From assembly GCF_045037415.1 (NCBI RefSeq), contig NZ_CP173438.1: DNA of 64,000 bases. One strand, 5' to 3'. Shown here in pieces: positions 2,656 through 59,553 of this stretch. Numbering within the stretch: the stretch's first letter is position 1; each line of letters starts with the position of its first letter. The stretch comes from Escherichia coli. GTDB lineage: Bacteria > Pseudomonadota > Gammaproteobacteria > Enterobacterales > Enterobacteriaceae. The notes beneath the pieces were generated by a model. It was given only the letters and a program-made list of their open reading frames with translations. It ran no database searches and was not told where the DNA came from. A program made the translations under genes and the position numbers.

Positions 2656-2738
2656 AGAGCTCTCTCTTAGTTTAATTTCCGCCAGGTAATCAGATGACAC
2701 GACTGTGCTTCACGCCATCTATTAACATGTACGTCAGT

Positions 2739-2769
2739 ATATGGGGATGTTTCCCCCACATTCAACGCC
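2739..2769 (-). promoter_or_regulatory. Sigma-32 (heat-shock) promoter of lon
   Basis: Minus strand reads GGCGTTGAA (-35-like CTTGAA) ... CCCCATAT (-10), matching the heat-shock consensus and the lon promoter as I recall it. Confidence 0.65.
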
Positions 2770-2780
2770 GAGAATAGAGG

Positions 2781-2809
2781 AAAAATTAAAGGGGAGATAA
2801 AATCCCCCC
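2781..2809 (-). terminator. Terminator-like hairpin downstream of clpX
   Basis: G/C-rich stem GGGGGGAU..AUCUCCCC on the minus transcript followed by U-rich tract; ~35 nt past the clpX stop. Confidence 0.55.
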
Positions 2810-2842
2810 TTTTCGGTTAACTAATTGTATGGGAATGGTTAA

Positions 2843-5111: not shown

Positions 5112-6419
<1,308 letters not shown>

Positions 6420-23282: not shown

Positions 23283-24257
23283 ATGCAATACAACCCCTTA
23301 GGAAAAACCGACCTTCGCGTTTCCCGACTTTGCCTCGGATGTATGACCTTTGGCGAGCCAGATCGCGGTAATCACGCATGGACACTGCCGGAAGAGAGCA
23401 GCCGTCCCATCATTAAACGTGCGCTGGAAGGCGGCATAAATTTCTTTGATACCGCCAATAGCTATTCCGATGGCAGCAGCGAAGAGATCGTCGGTCGCGC
23501 ACTGCGGGATTTCGCCCGTCGTGAAGACGTGGTCGTTGCGACCAAAGTGTTCCATCGCGTTGGTGATTTACCTGAAGGATTATCCCGTGCACAAATTTTG
23601 CGCTCTATCGACGACAGCCTGCGCCGTCTCGGCATGGATTATGTCGATATCCTGCAAATTCATCGCTGGGATTACAACACGCCGATCGAAGAGACGCTGG
23701 AAGCCCTGAACGACGTGGTAAAAGTCGGGAAAGCGCGTTATATCGGCGCGTCATCCATGCACGCTTCGCAGTTTGCTCAAGCACTGGAACTACAAAAACA
23801 GCACGGCTGGGCGCAGTTTGTCAGTATGCAGGATCACTACAATCTGATTTATCGTGAAGAAGAGCGCGAGATGCTGCCGCTGTGTTATCAGGAAGGCGTG
23901 GCGGTGATTCCATGGAGCCCGCTGGCGCGGGGCCGTCTGACGCGTCCTTGGGGAGAAACCACCGCACGGCTGGTGTCGGATGAAGTGGGGAAAAATCTCT
24001 ACCAAGAAAGCGATGAAAATGACGCACAAATTGCAGAACGCTTAACGGGCGTCAGTGAAGAACTTGGTGCAACGCGAGCACAAGTTGCGCTGGCCTGGTT
24101 GTTGAGTAAACCGGGCATTGCCGCACCGATTATCGGAACTTCTCGGGAGGAACAGCTTGATGAACTGCTAAACGCGGTGGATATCACCTTGAAGCCGGAA
24201 CAAATCGCCGAGCTGGAAACGCCGTATAAACCGCATCCGGTCGTAGGATTTAAATAG
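23283..24257 (+). CDS. yajO: Aldo-keto reductase YajO
   Basis: 324 aa; AKR-family features; recognised YajO downstream of dxs. Confidence 0.85.
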   Translation: MQYNPLGKTDLRVSRLCLGCMTFGEPDRGNHAWTLPEESSRPIIKRALEGGINFFDTANSYSDGSSEEIVGRALRDFARREDVVVATKVFHRVGDLPEGLSRAQILRSIDDSLRRLGMDYVDILQIHRWDYNTPIEETLEALNDVVKVGKARYIGASSMHASQFAQALELQKQHGWAQFVSMQDHYNLIYREEEREMLPLCYQEGVAVIPWSPLARGRLTRPWGETTARLVSDEVGKNLYQESDENDAQIAERLTGVSEELGATRAQVALAWLLSKPGIAAPIIGTSREEQLDELLNAVDITLKPEQIAELETPYKPHPVVGFK

Positions 24258-24262
24258 GTATA

Positions 24263-24303
24263 CAGGCCTGATGAGACGTGACAAGCGTCACATCAGGCAT
24301 CGG
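24263..24303. repeat. REP element at the convergent yajO/pgpA junction
   Basis: AGGCCTGATGAGACGTGACAAGCGTCACATCAGGCATCGG, typical REP palindrome. Confidence 0.75.
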
Positions 24304-24310
24304 TGCACAA

Positions 24311-24829
24311 CTACGACAGAATACCCAGCGGCCAGTGATGTCCAATAAAGTACAGGATGACTGCGGAGATCACCCCGGCGACAATATCGTCAATCATGAT
24401 CCCCATGCCGCCATGTACATTGCGATCAAACCAGCGGATCGGCCACGGCTTCCACATATCCAGAATACGGAAAATCACAAATCCGGCGGTAACCCACTGC
24501 CAGTCATTGGTCGGCAGCGCCATGAGCGTAATCCACATACCAATAAATTCGTCCCAGACAATACTGCCGTGATCGTGCACGCCCATGTCTTTCGCCGTTT
24601 GATGACAAAGATAGACGCCGATACAGATCCCCAGCATCACCACCAGCGAATAGAGCTGCCAGGGCAAAAAAGTCATCAGATACCAGAAGGGAATCGCCGC
24701 CAGCGACCCCATCGTGCCAGGAACGATCGGGCTTAATCCACTTCCGAATCCGACAGCAAGCAGATGCCACGGATTACTCATTTTCAGGCGACTTTTCGCG
24801 ACATCTTTATGGCGTGGCAAAATGGTCAT
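24311..24829 (-). CDS. pgpA: Phosphatidylglycerophosphatase A
   Basis: 172 aa membrane protein [31 protein letters not shown]; recognised PgpA; overlaps thiL 3' end by 23 nt. Confidence 0.9.
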
Positions 24830-25784
24830 ATCCTTTCCAGTCTAACGTGACAGGTTCGCCGTCACGAATAAAACAAAGCCCTTCGATATCGGCGGTCATT
24901 TGCCCGATACAGGTAAACGGTACGCCCAGGTGTCCGAGAGCCACATCCAGCGCGCCACGGTTCAGTTCCGGCACCGTAAAACACAACTCGTAATCTTCGC
25001 CGCCAGAGAGCGCCCAGCGCAGCGCCTGTTCCGGTTCAACATGGCGAGAAAGCGCATCAGAAAACGGCAGCAATGCCAGGTCAATACGTGCGCCGCAGTC
25101 GCTGGCTTTCACGATATGCCCGAGATCGGAAATCAGACCGTCAGAGAGATCGATAGCTGAATTTGCCAGATCGCGCAGTGCCTGCCCCTGTAAAATACGT
25201 GGCGACGGACGGAGATGACGTTTGATCAAGTAGTCCGCATCTTTAGCATCGGCAACCTGCAAACGGTTTTGCAAAATCGCCAGCCCGGCAGCGCTATCGC
25301 CCGGTGTACCGGTCACATAGATCCAGTCACCCGGTTTCGCCCCAGAGCGCGTTAAGGCTCGTCCCATCGGAACAAAGCCGTGGATACCCAACGTCATTGA
25401 TAATGGCCCACGCGTGGTATCGCCGCCAATAAGTTGCATATCGTAATAATTGAGAAGATCAAACAAGCTGTCGCTGAAGGACTCAAGCCACGCTTCGTCT
25501 ACGTCCGGTAAGGTTAATGCCAGCGTCAGCCAGGCCGGATCGGCCCCCATCGCTGCCAGATCGCTTAGGTTCACCGCCAGTGCTTTATAAGCCAGATCAG
25601 CAGGATCGATATCAGGGAGGAAGTGGTTGCCCGCCACCAGCGTATCAGTGCTGATCGCCAGGGTCTGTTTCTCGGGGATATTGAGAAGAGCGCAATCGTC
25701 GCCGATGCCCAGTTCGACATCAAGACGAGAACTTCTTACACGGTCAAAATAACGGGCAATCAGGGAGAACTCGCCACATGCCAT
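24807..25784 (-). CDS. thiL: Thiamine-monophosphate kinase
   Basis: 325 aa [16 protein letters not shown]; AIR-synthase-related fold; recognised ThiL. Confidence 0.9.
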
Positions 25785-25861
25785 ACGTTACGCCTCAGCA
25801 GATAAAAAAGAAAAGGCCGGCGATCATGGAACGGTCTTCCGTGAATCTACCGGCTTGGATA

Positions 25862-26281
25862 TTACTTTTTGTTAGGGCGAATCACAGGTGCTGCTTTATC
25901 GAGTACGCCGTTGACGAACTTATGGCTGTCTTCTGCGCCGAACGATTTCGCCAGTTCGATCGCTTCGTTAATGGCCACTTTGTATGGCACATCGCTACGT
26001 TTAGACAGCTCGTACAGCGCAATGCGCAGTACTGCTTTTTCTACCTGGCCCAGTTCTTCCAGCAGACGGGACAGGTACGGCTTCATCAGTCCGTCGAGGT
26101 ATGCGGTGTTAGTCGCCACCCCGGCCAGCAGCTCACGGAAGTACAGGACGTCAACGTCTTTTACATCCTGTTCAGCCAGGAACTGGTATTCAACATCAGC
26201 GATGTCGTTCTGGGACAACTGCCAGGAGTAGAGCGCCTGGACGGCACACTCACGAGCGCGGCGACGAGCAGCAGGTTTCAC
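25862..26281 (-). CDS. nusB: Transcription antitermination factor NusB
   Basis: 139 aa [25 protein letters not shown]; recognised NusB; ORF-track start is a non-ATG codon. Confidence 0.9.
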
Positions 26282-26300
26282 GGATTTCCCCTTACTAATT

Positions 26301-26771
26301 TCAGGCCTTGATGGCTTTCAATACATTAATCATTTCAAGCGCGGTCAGTGCAGCTTCTGCACCTTTGTTGCCAGCTTTGGTGCCAGCACGTTCGATCGCT
26401 TGTTCAATGCTTTCAGTGGTCAGAACACCAAAAGCAACCGGAATTTCGCTGTCCTGGGCAACATGCGCCAGGCCGTTGCTTGCACCACCAGCGACATATT
26501 CAAAGTGGGCAGTGCCACCACGAATAACCGTACCCAGCGCAATCACCGCGTCGTATTTACCGGTTTTAGCCAGTGCACCCGCCGCCAGCGGCAGCTCATA
26601 GGCACCAGGCACCCAAACAACGGTAATGTTTTCATCTTTTACCTGACCGATACGTTTCAGTGCGTCAATTGCACCTTCCAGCAGGCTGTCATTGATAAAG
26701 TTGTTGAAACGCGCGATGGTGATGGCGACGCGAGCGTCCGGGGTAGCAACGTTAGCTTCAATAATGTTCAT
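26301..26771 (-). CDS. ribH: 6,7-dimethyl-8-ribityllumazine synthase
   Basis: ORF 26301..26867 trimmed to Met33 (156 aa) [26 protein letters not shown]; also called ribE. Confidence 0.9.
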
Positions 26772-26859
26772 TTTCTTCCTTCGGGTTCGAGTATGGCCCC
26801 GCAGGGGGGCGGATTTTAGCATAATATTTCGTGCGCTGCTTCCCTTTCGAGCCGGGAGA

Positions 26860-27963
26860 TCATGCACCCACTAAATGCAGGCAAACATCCGGGCCTACAT
26901 GACGTATCTCTTTGAATTTAAATTGGGGAGCGTCGGCTAATTTCTCAAGCCCTGGCAGCGTGCATAATCCACGGGCGTCGTTGCCTAATAGTTTAGGTGC
27001 GATATAGACAATCAGCTCATCGACTAAACCCGCCTGTAGCAATGCGCCAGCGAGCGTTGGCCCCGCTTCCACCCAGATGCTGTTAATCTGCTGTTTACCC
27101 AGTTGCATCATTAGTACAACCAGATCCAGGTGACCTTTATGCTCTGGAATCAGCAAGGTACGCACCGTTTCCGGCCACTCACGAGAATCTTCCTGCGTAC
27201 GCGCGAACCAGGTTTCGCCGGGCTGCTGCACAATGCGATGTTCCGGCGTCACGCGATTTTGGCTATCAATCACAATACGTACTGGCTGACGGAGATTTTG
27301 TTGCGGGTAGAGCCCCTGAGTTTGTTCATCCAGTTCAGACCAACGCACTGTTAAGGCTGGATCATCCGCCAGCACCGTGGCGCTGCTGGTTAAAATGGCA
27401 TGACTTTGCGCGCGCAGTCGTTGTACGTCGCGTCGCGCCTGAGGCGAAGTGATCCACTGGCTTTCGCCACTCGCCATCGCCGTGCGACCATCAAGCGATG
27501 CGCCAAGTTTTAACTGAATATAAGGAAAGCCGGTGCGCATCCGCTTGAGAAAGCCTTTATTCAATTGCTCAGCTTCACTCATCATCAGCCCGTGGCTGAC
27601 GTCAATGCCAGCCTGTTGCAGACGGTAAAGTCCACGTCCAGCAACCTGCGGATTGGGGTCTTGCATTGCAGCAACCACGCGCGCCACGCCCGCAGCAATT
27701 AATGCATCACAACACGGTGGCGTACGACCATGATGGCTACAGGGTTCGAGTGTGACATACGCCGTTGCGCCTTTGGCTTTTTCGCCGGCCATGCGCAACG
27801 CGTGTACCTCGGCATGCGGTTCACCCGCTCGTTGATGGTAACCTTCACCGACAATTTCGCCATCTTTGACAATGACGCACCCGACATTCGGGTTGGGATG
27901 CGTGGTAAAACGTCCTCGTTGCGCCAGCTTTAGCGCCCGCGCCATGTAATACTCGTCCTGCAC
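26860..27963 (-). CDS. ribD: Bifunctional riboflavin biosynthesis deaminase/reductase RibD
   Basis: 367 aa; CMP/dCMP deaminase zinc motif [15 protein letters not shown]; C-terminal reductase domain. Confidence 0.9.
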
Positions 27964-27966
27964 GGC

Positions 27967-28452
<486 letters not shown>

Positions 28453-28566
28453 TTACCCTGAACTGACGATACAACAAAGGCGCAACGCTTTTGAGATAAA
28501 GGATCGATGCTTTCACTGCTTTTACCCTCTACCATTAGGCTAATTGCGACGAGAAAGGGACGACCT

Positions 28567-29106
28567 ATGAATACTAACGTTTTTCGACTGCTCCTGCTGG
28601 GAAGCCTGTTCAGCCTTAGCGCCTGTGTGCAGCAAAGTGAAGTGCGACAGATGAAACACAGCGTCAGCACGCTGAACCAGGAGATGACGCAACTCAATAA
28701 AGAAACGGTCAAAATCACTCAGCAAAACAAGCTGAATGCAAAATCCAGCAGTGGGGTTTACCTTCTGCCTGGAGCAAAAACACCAGCAAGACTGGAAAGC
28801 CAGATCGGTACTTTACGTATGTCGCTGGTGAATATTACGCCTGACACAGATGGCACTACCCTGACGCTACGTATTCAGGGCGAATCCAATGACCCTTTAC
28901 CCGCATTCAGCGGAACCGTTGAATATGGGCAAATTCAGGGAACAATAGACAACTTTCAGGAAATCAATGTGCAGAATCAATTGATTAACGCCCCTGCCAG
29001 CGTCCTCGCCCCCAGCGATGTTGATATTCCGTTACAGTTAAAGGGTATTTCTGTGGATCAGTTAGGCTTTGTACGTATCCACGACATTCAACCTGTTATG
29101 CAGTAA
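28567..29106 (+). CDS. yajI: Lipoprotein YajI
   Basis: ORF 28507..29106 trimmed to Met21 (179 aa) MNTNVFRLLLLGSLFSLSAC lipobox signal. Confidence 0.8.
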   Translation: MNTNVFRLLLLGSLFSLSACVQQSEVRQMKHSVSTLNQEMTQLNKETVKITQQNKLNAKSSSGVYLLPGAKTPARLESQIGTLRMSLVNITPDTDGTTLTLRIQGESNDPLPAFSGTVEYGQIQGTIDNFQEINVQNQLINAPASVLAPSDVDIPLQLKGISVDQLGFVRIHDIQPVMQ

Positions 29107-29111
29107 ACGTA

Positions 29112-29150
29112 TTGCGGGGCGATATTGTGCGTCCCGCAACATCTTTCTCC
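29112..29150 (+). terminator. Terminator-like hairpin after yajI
   Basis: UUGCGGGGCG..CGUCCCGCAA stem followed by CAUCUUUCUCC; 6 nt past the yajI stop. Confidence 0.6.
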
Positions 29151-29404
29151 GTCATTTTGTTACTCCGCTTACATCACCTGGATTGATAGTAAAAGTTTGC
29201 AACAAGGGTGAAAGTCAGTACAATCCCCGCCCGAATGTGTGTAAACGTGAACGCAATCGATTACGTAAATGATAGAACTGTGAAACGAAACATATTTTTG
29301 TGAGCAATGATTTTTATAATAGGCTCCTCTGTATACGAAATATTTAGAAACGCAATTTGCGCCTTTTTCACTCCCGCAAGGGATTTTCAAACAGTGGCAT
29401 ACAT
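29151..29404 (+). promoter_or_regulatory. tsx promoter region (known in E. coli to carry two promoters under CRP/CytR/DeoR control)
   Basis: ~250-bp AT-rich region upstream of tsx with TGTGA-containing CRP-like half sites (e.g. CTGTGAAACGAAACATA); site-level assignment not resolved by eye. Confidence 0.5.
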
Positions 29405-30289
29405 ATGAAAAAAACATTACTGGCAGCCGGTGCGGTACTGGCGCTCTCTTCGTCTTTTACTGTCAACGCAGCTGAAAACGACAAACCGCAGTATCTTTCC
29501 GACTGGTGGCACCAGAGCGTTAACGTTGTCGGAAGCTATCACACCCGTTTCGGACCGCAGCTCCGCAACGATACCTACCTTGAGTACGAAGCATTCGCTA
29601 AAAAAGACTGGTTCGACTTCTATGGTTATGCGGATGCGCCGGTATTCTTCGGCGGTAACTCCGATGCAAAAGGTATCTGGAACCACGGTTCTCCGCTGTT
29701 TATGGAAATCGAACCGCGTTTCTCCATTGACAAGCTGACCAATACTGACCTTAGCTTCGGTCCGTTCAAAGAGTGGTACTTCGCGAACAACTACATTTAC
29801 GACATGGGTCGTAATAAAGATGGCCGCCAGAGCACCTGGTACATGGGTCTGGGTACCGACATCGATACTGGTCTGCCGATGAGCCTGTCCATGAACGTCT
29901 ATGCGAAATACCAGTGGCAGAACTACGGCGCAGCGAACGAAAACGAGTGGGACGGTTACCGTTTCAAAGTGAAGTACTTTGTGCCGATTACCGATCTGTG
30001 GGGCGGCCAGCTGAGCTACATCGGCTTCACCAACTTCGACTGGGGTTCCGACCTGGGCGATGACAGCGGTTATGCGAACAACGGTATTAAAACACGTACC
30101 AATAACTCTATTGCGTCCAGCCATATTCTGGCGCTGAATTACGATCACTGGCACTACTCTGTCGTTGCCCGTTACTGGCATAACGGTGGTCAGTGGAATG
30201 ACGATGCAGAACTGAACTTCGGCAACGGCAACTTCAACGTTCGCTCTACCGGCTGGGGTGGTTATCTGGTAGTAGGTTACAACTTCTAA
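29405..30289 (+). CDS. tsx: Nucleoside-specific outer-membrane channel Tsx (phage T6 / colicin K receptor)
   Basis: ORF 29357..30289 trimmed to Met17 (294 aa) [22 protein letters not shown] signal peptide; beta-barrel-like aromatic-rich sequence ending ..GYNF. Confidence 0.9.
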
Positions 30290-40313: not shown

Positions 40314-40349
40314 CAATAAAAAACCACGGGGCATCGCAGCCCCGTGGTT
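40314..40349 (-). terminator. Rho-independent terminator of brnQ
   Basis: AACCACGGGGC-UGCGAU-GCCCCGUGGUU followed by UUUUUAUUG on the minus transcript, 20 nt past the brnQ stop. Confidence 0.8.
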
Positions 40350-49979: not shown

Positions 49980-50006
49980 ATTGCAGTCACGGTGCACGTT
50001 GCTTAT

Positions 50007-50223
50007 TGCCGGATGCGGCGTGAACGCCTTATCCGGCCTACGGGACTGTTCATTTTGTAGGCCTGATAAGACACGCCAGTGTCGCATCAGGCATCGGAGC
50101 ACCGGGGGGTTGCCGCCACTGTGCGCGTTATTTGTTGCCGGATGCGGCGCGAGCGCCTTATCCGGCCTACCGGACGGCTCACTTTGTAGGCCTGATAAGA
50201 CGCGGCAAGCGTCGCATCAGGCA
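50007..50223. repeat. BIME cluster: four REP elements in two tandem REP pairs between araJ and mak
   Basis: TGCCGGATGCGGCG(T/C)GA(A/G)CGCCTTATCCGGCCTAC occurs twice and GTAGGCCTGATAAGAC(A/G)CG..GTCGCATCAGGCA occurs twice in alternating order. Confidence 0.9.
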
Positions 50224-58093: not shown

Positions 58094-58130
58094 CAAAAAA
58101 ACCACCCGGCAGCGAAAATTCACTGCCGGG
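58094..58130 (-). terminator. Hairpin plus U-tract between phoA and psiF (partial intra-operon terminator)
   Basis: CCCGGCAG..CUGCCGGG stem followed by UGGUUUUUUUG on the minus transcript, 8 nt past the phoA stop. Confidence 0.7.
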
Positions 58131-58137
58131 CGCGGTT

Positions 58138-59553
58138 TTATTTCAGCCCCAGGGCGGCTTTCATGGTGTAGAAGAGATCGGTCTGGTCGGTCAGTCCAAC
58201 AACATTGGCGGCATGCGGGCCATACGCCGCAATACGCAACTGACTGCCGGTATGTTCTTGTGAATCCTCTTCGGAGTTCCCGTAACTCATCACCATCACT
58301 GCGCCATCTTTGGTATTTAGCGCCTGGGTGAGGCCCGGAGCTTTGGTATCTGGCGCAACTATCTGGCTGGCATGGGCGTGATCAGCGGTGACTATGACCA
58401 ACGTGTTACCATCCTTTTTAGCGAATTCCAGCGCCCGTTGTACGGCTTCATCGAGATCGACCGTCTCGCCAATTTGCCCACAAGGATTCGCAGCGTGATC
58501 CTGTTTATCGATTGACGCACCTTCAACTTGCAGGAAAAAGCCTTTCTCATTTTTACTCAACAATTCAATGGCTTTGTCGGTCATCTGCGCCAGGGTCGGT
58601 ACACTGTCATTACGTTGCGGATTAGGCGTACAGGTGACTGCGGGCTTATCTATATTACCGTGGTACGTTGCTTTCGGTCCTTGCCAGCGCACTGGCATAT
58701 TGCCGTCAGCAAACAGTCCTAATAGGGGTTTTTGCTGATTCGCTTCCGTCACCGAATTCAGTGAGGCAGCATCGCTCACCAACTGATAACCACGCGCCTG
58801 TGCCTGTTCACGCAGCGTTTTTCCCTGCCATTCACCGGCGGTTGCCGTTTCAGCAAAGGTTTTTGCACCGCCGCCAAGCGTAACATCGGCACGGGCGTTA
58901 AGCAGCTGTTCGGTAATCGATCCTTTTCCGCCTTTTTCCAGAGCGTTACCCGGACATTTTTCACTGGTCGCACTTGGACCGTAGCATTTGCGCGAGGTCA
59001 CATGCGCCACCAGCGCAGCGGGCGTGGCATCCTGCAACTCTGCGGTAGAAACGTTACCGGTCGCCAGACCTGCGGCTTTTGCCATTTCCAGAATCGTTGG
59101 GTGATCTTTTTCGTGAATATCGACGCCCAGCGCGCCGTTATAGGTTTTGACACCAGTTGACCAGGCGGTTGCTGATGCAGCCGAGTCGGTGACGTAGTCC
59201 GGTTTGCCGGTTTTTTTATTCAGCGCATAGTGAGTGTATTGCCCGGTAAGCGGTAAGGCATCGATACCTTTAAAAAAGCCGCCCGCACCTTCGGCATAAT
59301 TGCGTGCGGCAGTAATTTCCGAGTCCCCCATCCCATCGCCAATCAGCAAAATAATATTTTTTGCAGGTTTATCGCTAAGAGAATCACGCAGAGCAGCGGT
59401 CTGATCACCCGTTAAGCGGCGAGCACCGCCGGGTGCAGTAATATCGCCCTGAGCTGCCCGGTTTTCCAGAACAGGCATTTCTGGTGTCCGGGCTTTTGTC
59501 ACAGGGGTAAACAGTAACGGTAAGAGTGCCAGTGCAATAGTGCTTTGTTTCAC
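58138..59553 (-). CDS. phoA: Alkaline phosphatase
   Basis: ORF 58138..59622 trimmed to GTG at codon 24 (471 aa precursor) (V/M)[20 protein letters not shown] signal peptide; GGAG SD (TACATGGAGAAAATAAAGTG); active-site region [12 protein letters not shown]. Confidence 0.95.

Follow-up and report, generated by a model that had tools for sequence, protein, structure and literature searches.

The 77-nt spacer between nusB and thiL of Escherichia coli very probably contains a constitutive, leaky intrinsic (Rho-independent) terminator, located inside the ribH(ribE)-nusB-thiL-pgpA operon. Its effect is most likely to lower thiL-pgpA expression relative to ribH-nusB. RNA polymerase leaving nusB would transcribe a GC-based hairpin and, immediately after it, a U-rich tract; in some rounds the hairpin would form while the weak rU:dA hybrid sits in the enzyme, and the transcript would be released. 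The released products would be ribH-nusB mRNAs ending in the U-tract, while the remaining polymerases would read through to produce the sole transcripts able to express thiL and pgpA, and the element would in this way make expression drop from the first gene pair to the second.

The nusB-thiL spacer and its hairpin

The DNA analyzed here, a stretch of 64,000 nucleotides referred to as the window, is part of an E. coli chromosome. Its nusB-thiL region is 100% identical to strain SK1144 over 901 bases and was present in 5424 of 5426 complete E. coli genomes. SK1144, the closest genome, carries a 1435-bp IS1397 insertion at about 49996..50050, downstream of araJ, which the window lacks; the insertion site lies in the REP-like palindrome GCCGGATGCGGCGTGAACGCCTTATCCGGCCTAC, and IS1397 has been reported to target REP-like palindromes.

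The RefSeq annotation contains no feature at the nusB-thiL terminator site, and a literature search found no paper naming or studying this site; the 1984 nusB sequence papers reportedly may have remarked on a terminator-like structure past the gene. An earlier note on this DNA had tentatively proposed a partial terminator here, with Term-seq, RNA folding and conservation of the U-tract as checks. Its coordinates for a 77-nt gap on the minus-strand transcript were confirmed, and the elements it described, namely the GCCGG...CCGGC arms, the nested CGG-AAGA-CCG and the tail CUUUUCUUUUUUAUC, are all present in the minus-strand RNA of the spacer, UAUCCAAGCCGGUAGAUUCACGGAAGACCGUUCCAUGAUCGCCGGCCUUUUCUUUUUUAUCUGCUGAGGCGUAACGU. 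However, the stem length of about 5 bp given there was an understatement, as the outer arms are joined to an inner helix, forming an interrupted helix of 15-17 bp. The folding check favored the hairpin (15 bp, -19.0 kcal/mol), though the window spacer showed no excess stability when compared with 200 dinucleotide shuffles (shuffles -16.9 +/- 2.7 kcal/mol; z = -0.8; 37/200 as stable).

The minimum-energy fold of the spacer comprises 15 pairs interrupted by three 1-nt bulges, in which positions 8-25 pair with positions 31-46 around the loop GACCG; the hairpin alone accounts for about -18 of the -19.0 kcal/mol calculated for the whole spacer. The hairpin begins 7 nt past the nusB stop codon in the window and 5-6 nt past it in K-12, and the stem is followed by one C, UUUUCUUUUUU and then the thiL ribosome-binding site. 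The spacer thus combines the two parts of an intrinsic terminator, a GC-rich stem-loop with a GCCGG/CCGGC base and a U-tract directly 3' of the stem (C plus UUUUCUUUUUU in the window, without the intervening C in K-12). The hairpin was retained in 161-nt context folds of both the window and K-12 alleles, and in the K-12 context fold the A-rich end of nusB paired with the U-tract, as A-tracts do upstream of many terminators. The features of the locus are listed in Table 1.

Table 1. Positions of the nusB-thiL element and neighboring features in the window.
Feature	Coordinates	Strand	Basis
Gene order nrdR-ribD-ribH-nusB-thiL-pgpA		-	Annotation
nusB	26281..25862	-	
thiL	25784..24807	-	
nusB-thiL spacer, 77 nt	25861..25785	-	
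nusB stop codon (TAA here, TGA in K-12)	25862..25864	-	
A-rich last nusB codons AACAAAAAG	25865..25873	-	Predicted pairing with the U-tract in the K-12 context fold
Polymorphic base at the stem foot (RNA position 7)	25855..25855	-	Allele comparison
Hairpin 5' arm GCCGGUAGAUUCACGGAA (RNA positions 8-25)	25837..25854	-	Minimum-energy fold
Hairpin loop GACCG (RNA positions 26-30)	25832..25836	-	Minimum-energy fold
Hairpin 3' arm UUCCAUGAUCGCCGGC (RNA positions 31-46)	25816..25831	-	Fold; basal pairs covary
C, then U-tract UUUUCUUUUUU (RNA positions 47-58)	25804..25815	-	Sequence and fold; T enrichment over 81 spacers
Equivalent of K-12 Term-seq 3' end 435608(+)	25810..25810	-	Coordinate mapping; measured on the K-12 allele, in another strain
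thiL Shine-Dalgarno GAGG, 8 nt upstream of ATG	25793..25796	-	Sequence
thiL start codon ATG	25782..25784	-	
Early thiL RNA stretch with C > G	25600..25699	-	Composition; overlaps the approximate K-12 Rho region (weak)

Scanning the window with a consensus terminator model did not list the nusB-thiL site, because that scan accepts loops of 3-8 nt and tolerates no break in the stem. A looser hairpin-plus-T scan returned 36 matches inside genes and 20 between genes; among its sense-strand post-gene matches the site ranked 4th in stability, behind phoA, lon and brnQ and above tig, tsx, clpX and secF. In the phoA-psiF spacer, at 58102..58139 (-), lies a hairpin of -26.4 kcal/mol with seven T after it, which exceeds all other terminator-like hairpins of the window in stability. 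It starts 3 nt past the phoA stop codon, upstream of the co-oriented psiF, and its A and T runs on both sides make it look bidirectional. The brnQ-proY spacer contains a compact canonical terminator at 40324..40347 (-), CCACGGGGC-UGCG-AUGCCCCGUGG followed by UUUUUUAUU, which is positioned 21 nt past brnQ and before the co-oriented proY.

Within E. coli, the element exists in several alleles. The window spacer differs from that of K-12 at three positions, one of which is RNA position 7, where the window has A and the majority of E. coli, including K-12 and EDL933, have G. With A7 the basal G7-C47 pair is lost, and a single C separates the stem from the U-tract. The predicted spacer energies are -19.0 kcal/mol for the window, -25.4 kcal/mol for K-12 and -27.3 kcal/mol for EDL933, and the window A7 allele is predicted to be a somewhat weaker terminator than that of K-12. 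Exact matches to the hairpin allele of the window occurred in 546 of 5409 complete E. coli genomes, a minority of about 10%; a further 2747 genomes differed from it at one position and 2113 at about three. Together with the genus-divergent stem interiors described below, the three main E. coli alleles provide a natural series for the study of terminator strength.

Conservation of the hairpin and U-tract across Enterobacterales

One genome per species was scanned, which yielded 80 Enterobacterales loci ranging from Escherichia to Hafnia and Edwardsiella, and 81 spacers were analyzed. In each of the 80 species loci, thiL lay directly 3' of nusB, and the spacer between them measured 44-137 nt. 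A GGCCGG/CCGGCC-based hairpin followed by a T-rich run was found just past the nusB stop codon in 80/80 species and looks impaired in only two of them: in Candidatus Erwinia dacicola, an insect symbiont, the hairpin has decayed to -6.2 kcal/mol (L081:2921-2972), and in Acerihabitans arboris the U-tract lies 7 nt away from the stem (L075:2921-2991). The median z of the orthologous spacers was -2.9, and 69 of the 81 were more stable than 95% of their own dinucleotide shuffles; the window allele is among the weakest.

RNAalifold predicted no structure on a 42-sequence MAFFT alignment, as stem interiors cannot be aligned between genera; therefore, we counted the basal stem explicitly and turned to a closer clade. 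Across the 42-sequence alignment, the nine pairs of the basal stem were paired in 84% of cases, compared to 30-58% when the 3' partners were slid by 1-3 columns. Changes on both sides of a pair, such as G-C to A-U, were observed in 7 of the 9 basal pairs, and the observed score was reached by 0/500 shuffles. For the 16-sequence Enterobacter/Kosakonia subset, RNAalifold did predict a structure; it has 15 pairs, and 5 of these show compensatory changes.

The geometry around the stem is likewise shared. Over the 81 spacers, T frequency after the stem was 0.69-0.81 at seven of positions +1 to +8, against 0.22 within the hairpin; the remaining position, +4, had a T frequency of 0.45 and is where E. 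coli carries its interrupting C. The distance from stop codon to stem was 4-7 nt in 64/81 spacers, with a mode of 5 nt, and the stem end lay 27-29 nt from the thiL ATG in 48/81. Erwiniaceae possess a short textbook terminator, for example AAAGGCCGG-UUCA-CCGGCCUUUUUU. Enterobacteriaceae have the same base extended by a further helix to a total of 17-20 pairs; the sequence of this helix is unrelated between genera, but it always pairs. This comparison between species, and not the window sequence alone, settles the question of whether the palindrome is more than chance.

Next to the element, the block CUGCUGAGGCAUAACGUAUG (25785..25803, -), covering the 20 nt up to and including the thiL start, is near-invariant across Enterobacteriaceae. 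Its conservation exceeds the need of a ribosome-binding site alone, while the interior of the adjoining upstream hairpin turns over freely.

The 3' end in vivo and its possible origins

Published Term-seq data place an RNA 3' end at this element in vivo. A dominant 3' end of K-12 MG1655 is recorded at 435608(+) in Supplementary file 1 of Adams et al. 2021 (PMC7815308), with average read counts of 4139.75 in LB at OD 0.4 and 2616.98 in M63 glucose; this end is absent from the LB OD 2.0 list. The sequence printed around it, ATCCAGGCCGGTAGATTCACGGAAGACCGTTCCATGATCGCCGGCCTTTTCTTTTTTACCT (PMC7815308), matches the nusB-thiL hairpin and U-tract exactly. With the K-12 nusB gene ending at 435556, 435608 corresponds to spacer position 52, and the RNA ends in ...GCCGGCCUUUUC, 5 nt past the stem. 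For the K-12 allele, RNA 3' ends therefore lie within the U-tract in vivo, both in LB at OD 0.4 and in M63.

In that study, 435608(+) was classed as "orphan" and carried no gene name (PMC7815308), because it lies 52 nt past nusB and the "primary" class requires a distance of <= 50 bp from the gene end. We assign this end to the nusB terminator, a step whose value is mainly one of annotation. The end was also left out of the 5'-UTR table of Adams et al. (PMC7815308), which under the filtering rules of that study means that the first feature upstream of it is a stop codon, with no transcription start within 200 nt upstream. This argues indirectly that thiL has no nearby promoter.

From the mapped 3' end to the thiL ATG there are about 26 nt, taken up mostly by the ribosome-binding site and what remains of the U-tract, and a promoter scan found no promoter-like site between the terminator and thiL. 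Consequently, any ThiL-encoding transcript would have to read through the terminator. In E. coli, thiamine pyrophosphate is made by ThiL in both the de novo and salvage routes, and the cell has no other way to it. The E. coli operon is listed as ribE-nusB-thiL-pgpA (PMC8743547), an RT-PCR product from V. cholerae spans the nusB-thiL junction (PMC5312566), and K-12 3'-end reads are present downstream of the junction (PMC7815308). We infer that termination is incomplete. A leaky terminator at this position would explain how one operon could deliver different amounts of ribH-nusB and thiL-pgpA.

Farther upstream, the ribD-ribH spacer contains a sigma-70-like promoter match, TCGAAA-18-TATTAT, at 26850..26821 (-). 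Window position 26796 corresponds to 434622(+), a second "orphan" 3' end in the K-12 Term-seq data. This end lies just past a CCCC...GGGG hairpin that has no U-tract, and < 20 nt downstream of the would-be start of this promoter; it could be a processed or hairpin-protected end of the ribD transcript.

The short distance between the nusB stop codon and the hairpin raises the matter of translation. In the in vivo work of Li et al. (PMC4824070), the tR2 terminator lost nearly all its activity at a distance of 8-9 bp from a stop codon and had an efficiency of about 0.9 beyond 30 bp; the authors ascribed the repression to a trailing ribosome that blocks the hairpin. A ribosome finishing nusB would cover the foot of the stem, and termination would then be largely confined to rounds in which the ribosome has fallen behind the polymerase. 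We tentatively raise the possibility, on balance doubtful, that the terminator is translation-gated via the nusB ribosome, with the ribH-nusB : thiL-pgpA ratio reporting how closely transcription and translation are coupled and the set point tuned by stem extensions particular to each lineage and by natural alleles such as the G-to-A change at the stem base in the window. A short stop-to-hairpin distance is not unique to this locus, given that the phoA terminator in the window starts 3 nt past its stop codon. The element is a candidate site for ribosome-proximity effects on termination, and our understanding of termination itself is unchanged by it.

We consider that the 3' end in the U-tract probably arises by termination rather than by processing, although Term-seq cannot tell termination from processing followed by trimming back to the hairpin. 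An alternative that we regard as unlikely is that the hairpin is a 3' stabilizer: polymerases would read through, the RNA would be cut downstream, and 3' exonucleases would trim it back to the hairpin, which would protect the ribH-nusB mRNA and yield the observed end. This would be in keeping with the steady-state nature of the ends seen by Term-seq, with the assignment by Adams et al. of most otherwise unassigned 5'-UTR and ORF-internal ends to processing (PMC7815308), and with the unusual length of the Enterobacteriaceae stems (17-20 bp), which is suited to blocking an exonuclease. Yet an exonuclease block needs no U-tract, and the T-rich run is kept in nearly all 81 spacers; moreover, the Erwiniaceae element, AAAGGCCGG-loop-CCGGCCUUUUUU, is a textbook short terminator. 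The stabilizing and terminating roles are also not mutually exclusive.

Rho activity has been detected nearby. Supplementary file 2 of Adams et al. reports a bicyclomycin-sensitive Rho region, "internal thiL", at 435798(+) (PMC7815308), with upstream/downstream 3'-end read counts of 244/61 without bicyclomycin and 185/106 with it, that is, a downstream:upstream ratio rising from 0.25 to 0.57. Its Rho score is 2.29 (p = 1.1e-5), and its position is approximate, as 800-nt windows were used (PMC7815308). The region maps to about window position 25620, ~190 nt downstream of 435608, within the stretch of RNA in which C exceeds G; the 435608 end itself carries no Rho score. These data hint that a second, Rho-dependent polarity layer may remove some of the transcripts that escape the hairpin, and part of the drop at the junction may be Rho-dependent. 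It is improbable that the drop is mainly Rho-dependent, with weakly translated thiL RNA recruiting Rho and the hairpin only marking the point where trimming stops. The bicyclomycin response and the C > G stretch at 25600-25699 speak for such a scenario, but the Rho call is approximate and its score modest, the mapped end falls within the U-tract and precedes the Rho region, and a conserved hairpin with a U-tract is the signature of intrinsic termination. Furthermore, intrinsic and Rho-dependent mechanisms can act in series.

Regulated attenuation, in which readthrough would answer to thiamine pyrophosphate, a leader peptide, NusB/NusE at a boxA or a similar signal, is very improbable, despite the location of the site between the gene for an antitermination factor and a thiamine gene and despite the stop codon abutting the hairpin. 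An Rfam search of positions 24000-29500 found no family, including TPP, that matched the spacer even at E <= 10, and a TPP riboswitch was rejected on this ground; the 77-nt spacer is also too short for one. The 161-nt contexts of the window and K-12 alleles revealed no competing antiterminator structure, and a leader-peptide attenuator was rejected for lack of an alternative fold. Matches to boxA occurred at the chance rate, with none in the operon. Across the whole window, the sole Rfam family at gathering score is the sraA small RNA (RF02029, 105.6 bits), located at 2727..2822 (+) between clpX and lon on the opposite strand.

Finally, a functionless chance palindrome is scarcely credible: the single-sequence z of -0.8 and the many hairpin-plus-T matches inside genes in the loose scan would allow it, but the hairpin is conserved with covariation in 80 species and a dominant in vivo 3' end maps to its U-tract.

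The partial terminator uncoupling ribH-nusB from thiL-pgpA that the earlier note had suggested is thus favored by all three of its checks: by folding, by Term-seq, with the dominant K-12 3' end in the U-tract under two growth conditions, and by conservation, with the hairpin and U-tract in 80/80 species and compensatory changes in the stem; its leakiness is deduced. The term "attenuator" used there is apt in the loose sense of a partial terminator but not in the sense of a regulated one, since neither an antiterminator fold nor an Rfam family nor a boxA was found.

Comparison with known terminators and intra-operon hairpins

Canonical intrinsic terminators, such as lambda tR2 and those of lon, tig and phoA in the window, share with the nusB-thiL element a GC-rich stem-loop followed by a U-tract, an RNA 3' end that falls in this tract and, upstream of the stem, a run rich in A that can pair with the tract. 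In contrast to them, three bulges interrupt the nusB-thiL stem, which is long at 15 bp (17-20 bp in other Enterobacteriaceae), its U-tract is broken by one C, and the hairpin stands 5-7 nt past a stop codon between genes that are probably co-transcribed instead of at the end of an operon.

In leader-peptide and riboswitch attenuators (trp, thr and his; the TPP thi-box), a biosynthetic gene is likewise preceded by a terminator hairpin, beside which a translated reading frame ends. Unlike these, the nusB-thiL element has no antiterminator fold, leader peptide or ligand-binding domain, and the reading frame that ends beside it is nusB, a complete gene. Intercistronic hairpins of the REP/BIME type, for example in malE-malF, are GC-rich palindromes within operons that can stabilize upstream mRNA. 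The nusB-thiL element shares the GC-rich intra-operon palindrome, but REPs are dispersed repeats, whereas this element is single-copy, is followed by a U-tract and has a sequence unrelated to the REP consensus. A REP element was accordingly rejected, as each of the 5409-5424 E. coli genomes has the element in a single place.

The closest relatives are found among terminators within operons. rplL-rpoB and rpsU-dnaG are operon-internal partial terminators, and the nusB-thiL element would belong with this group by its position and its presumed leakiness. The cases described in PMC4824070 are likewise constitutive leaky terminators between co-oriented genes, of which the upstream ones are needed in larger amounts, and likewise have no known dedicated regulator; their termination efficiencies were measured, and the leakiness at nusB-thiL is putative. 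Collectively, the nusB-thiL element is real, conserved and experimentally supported, and is an ordinary instance of a well-known mechanism.
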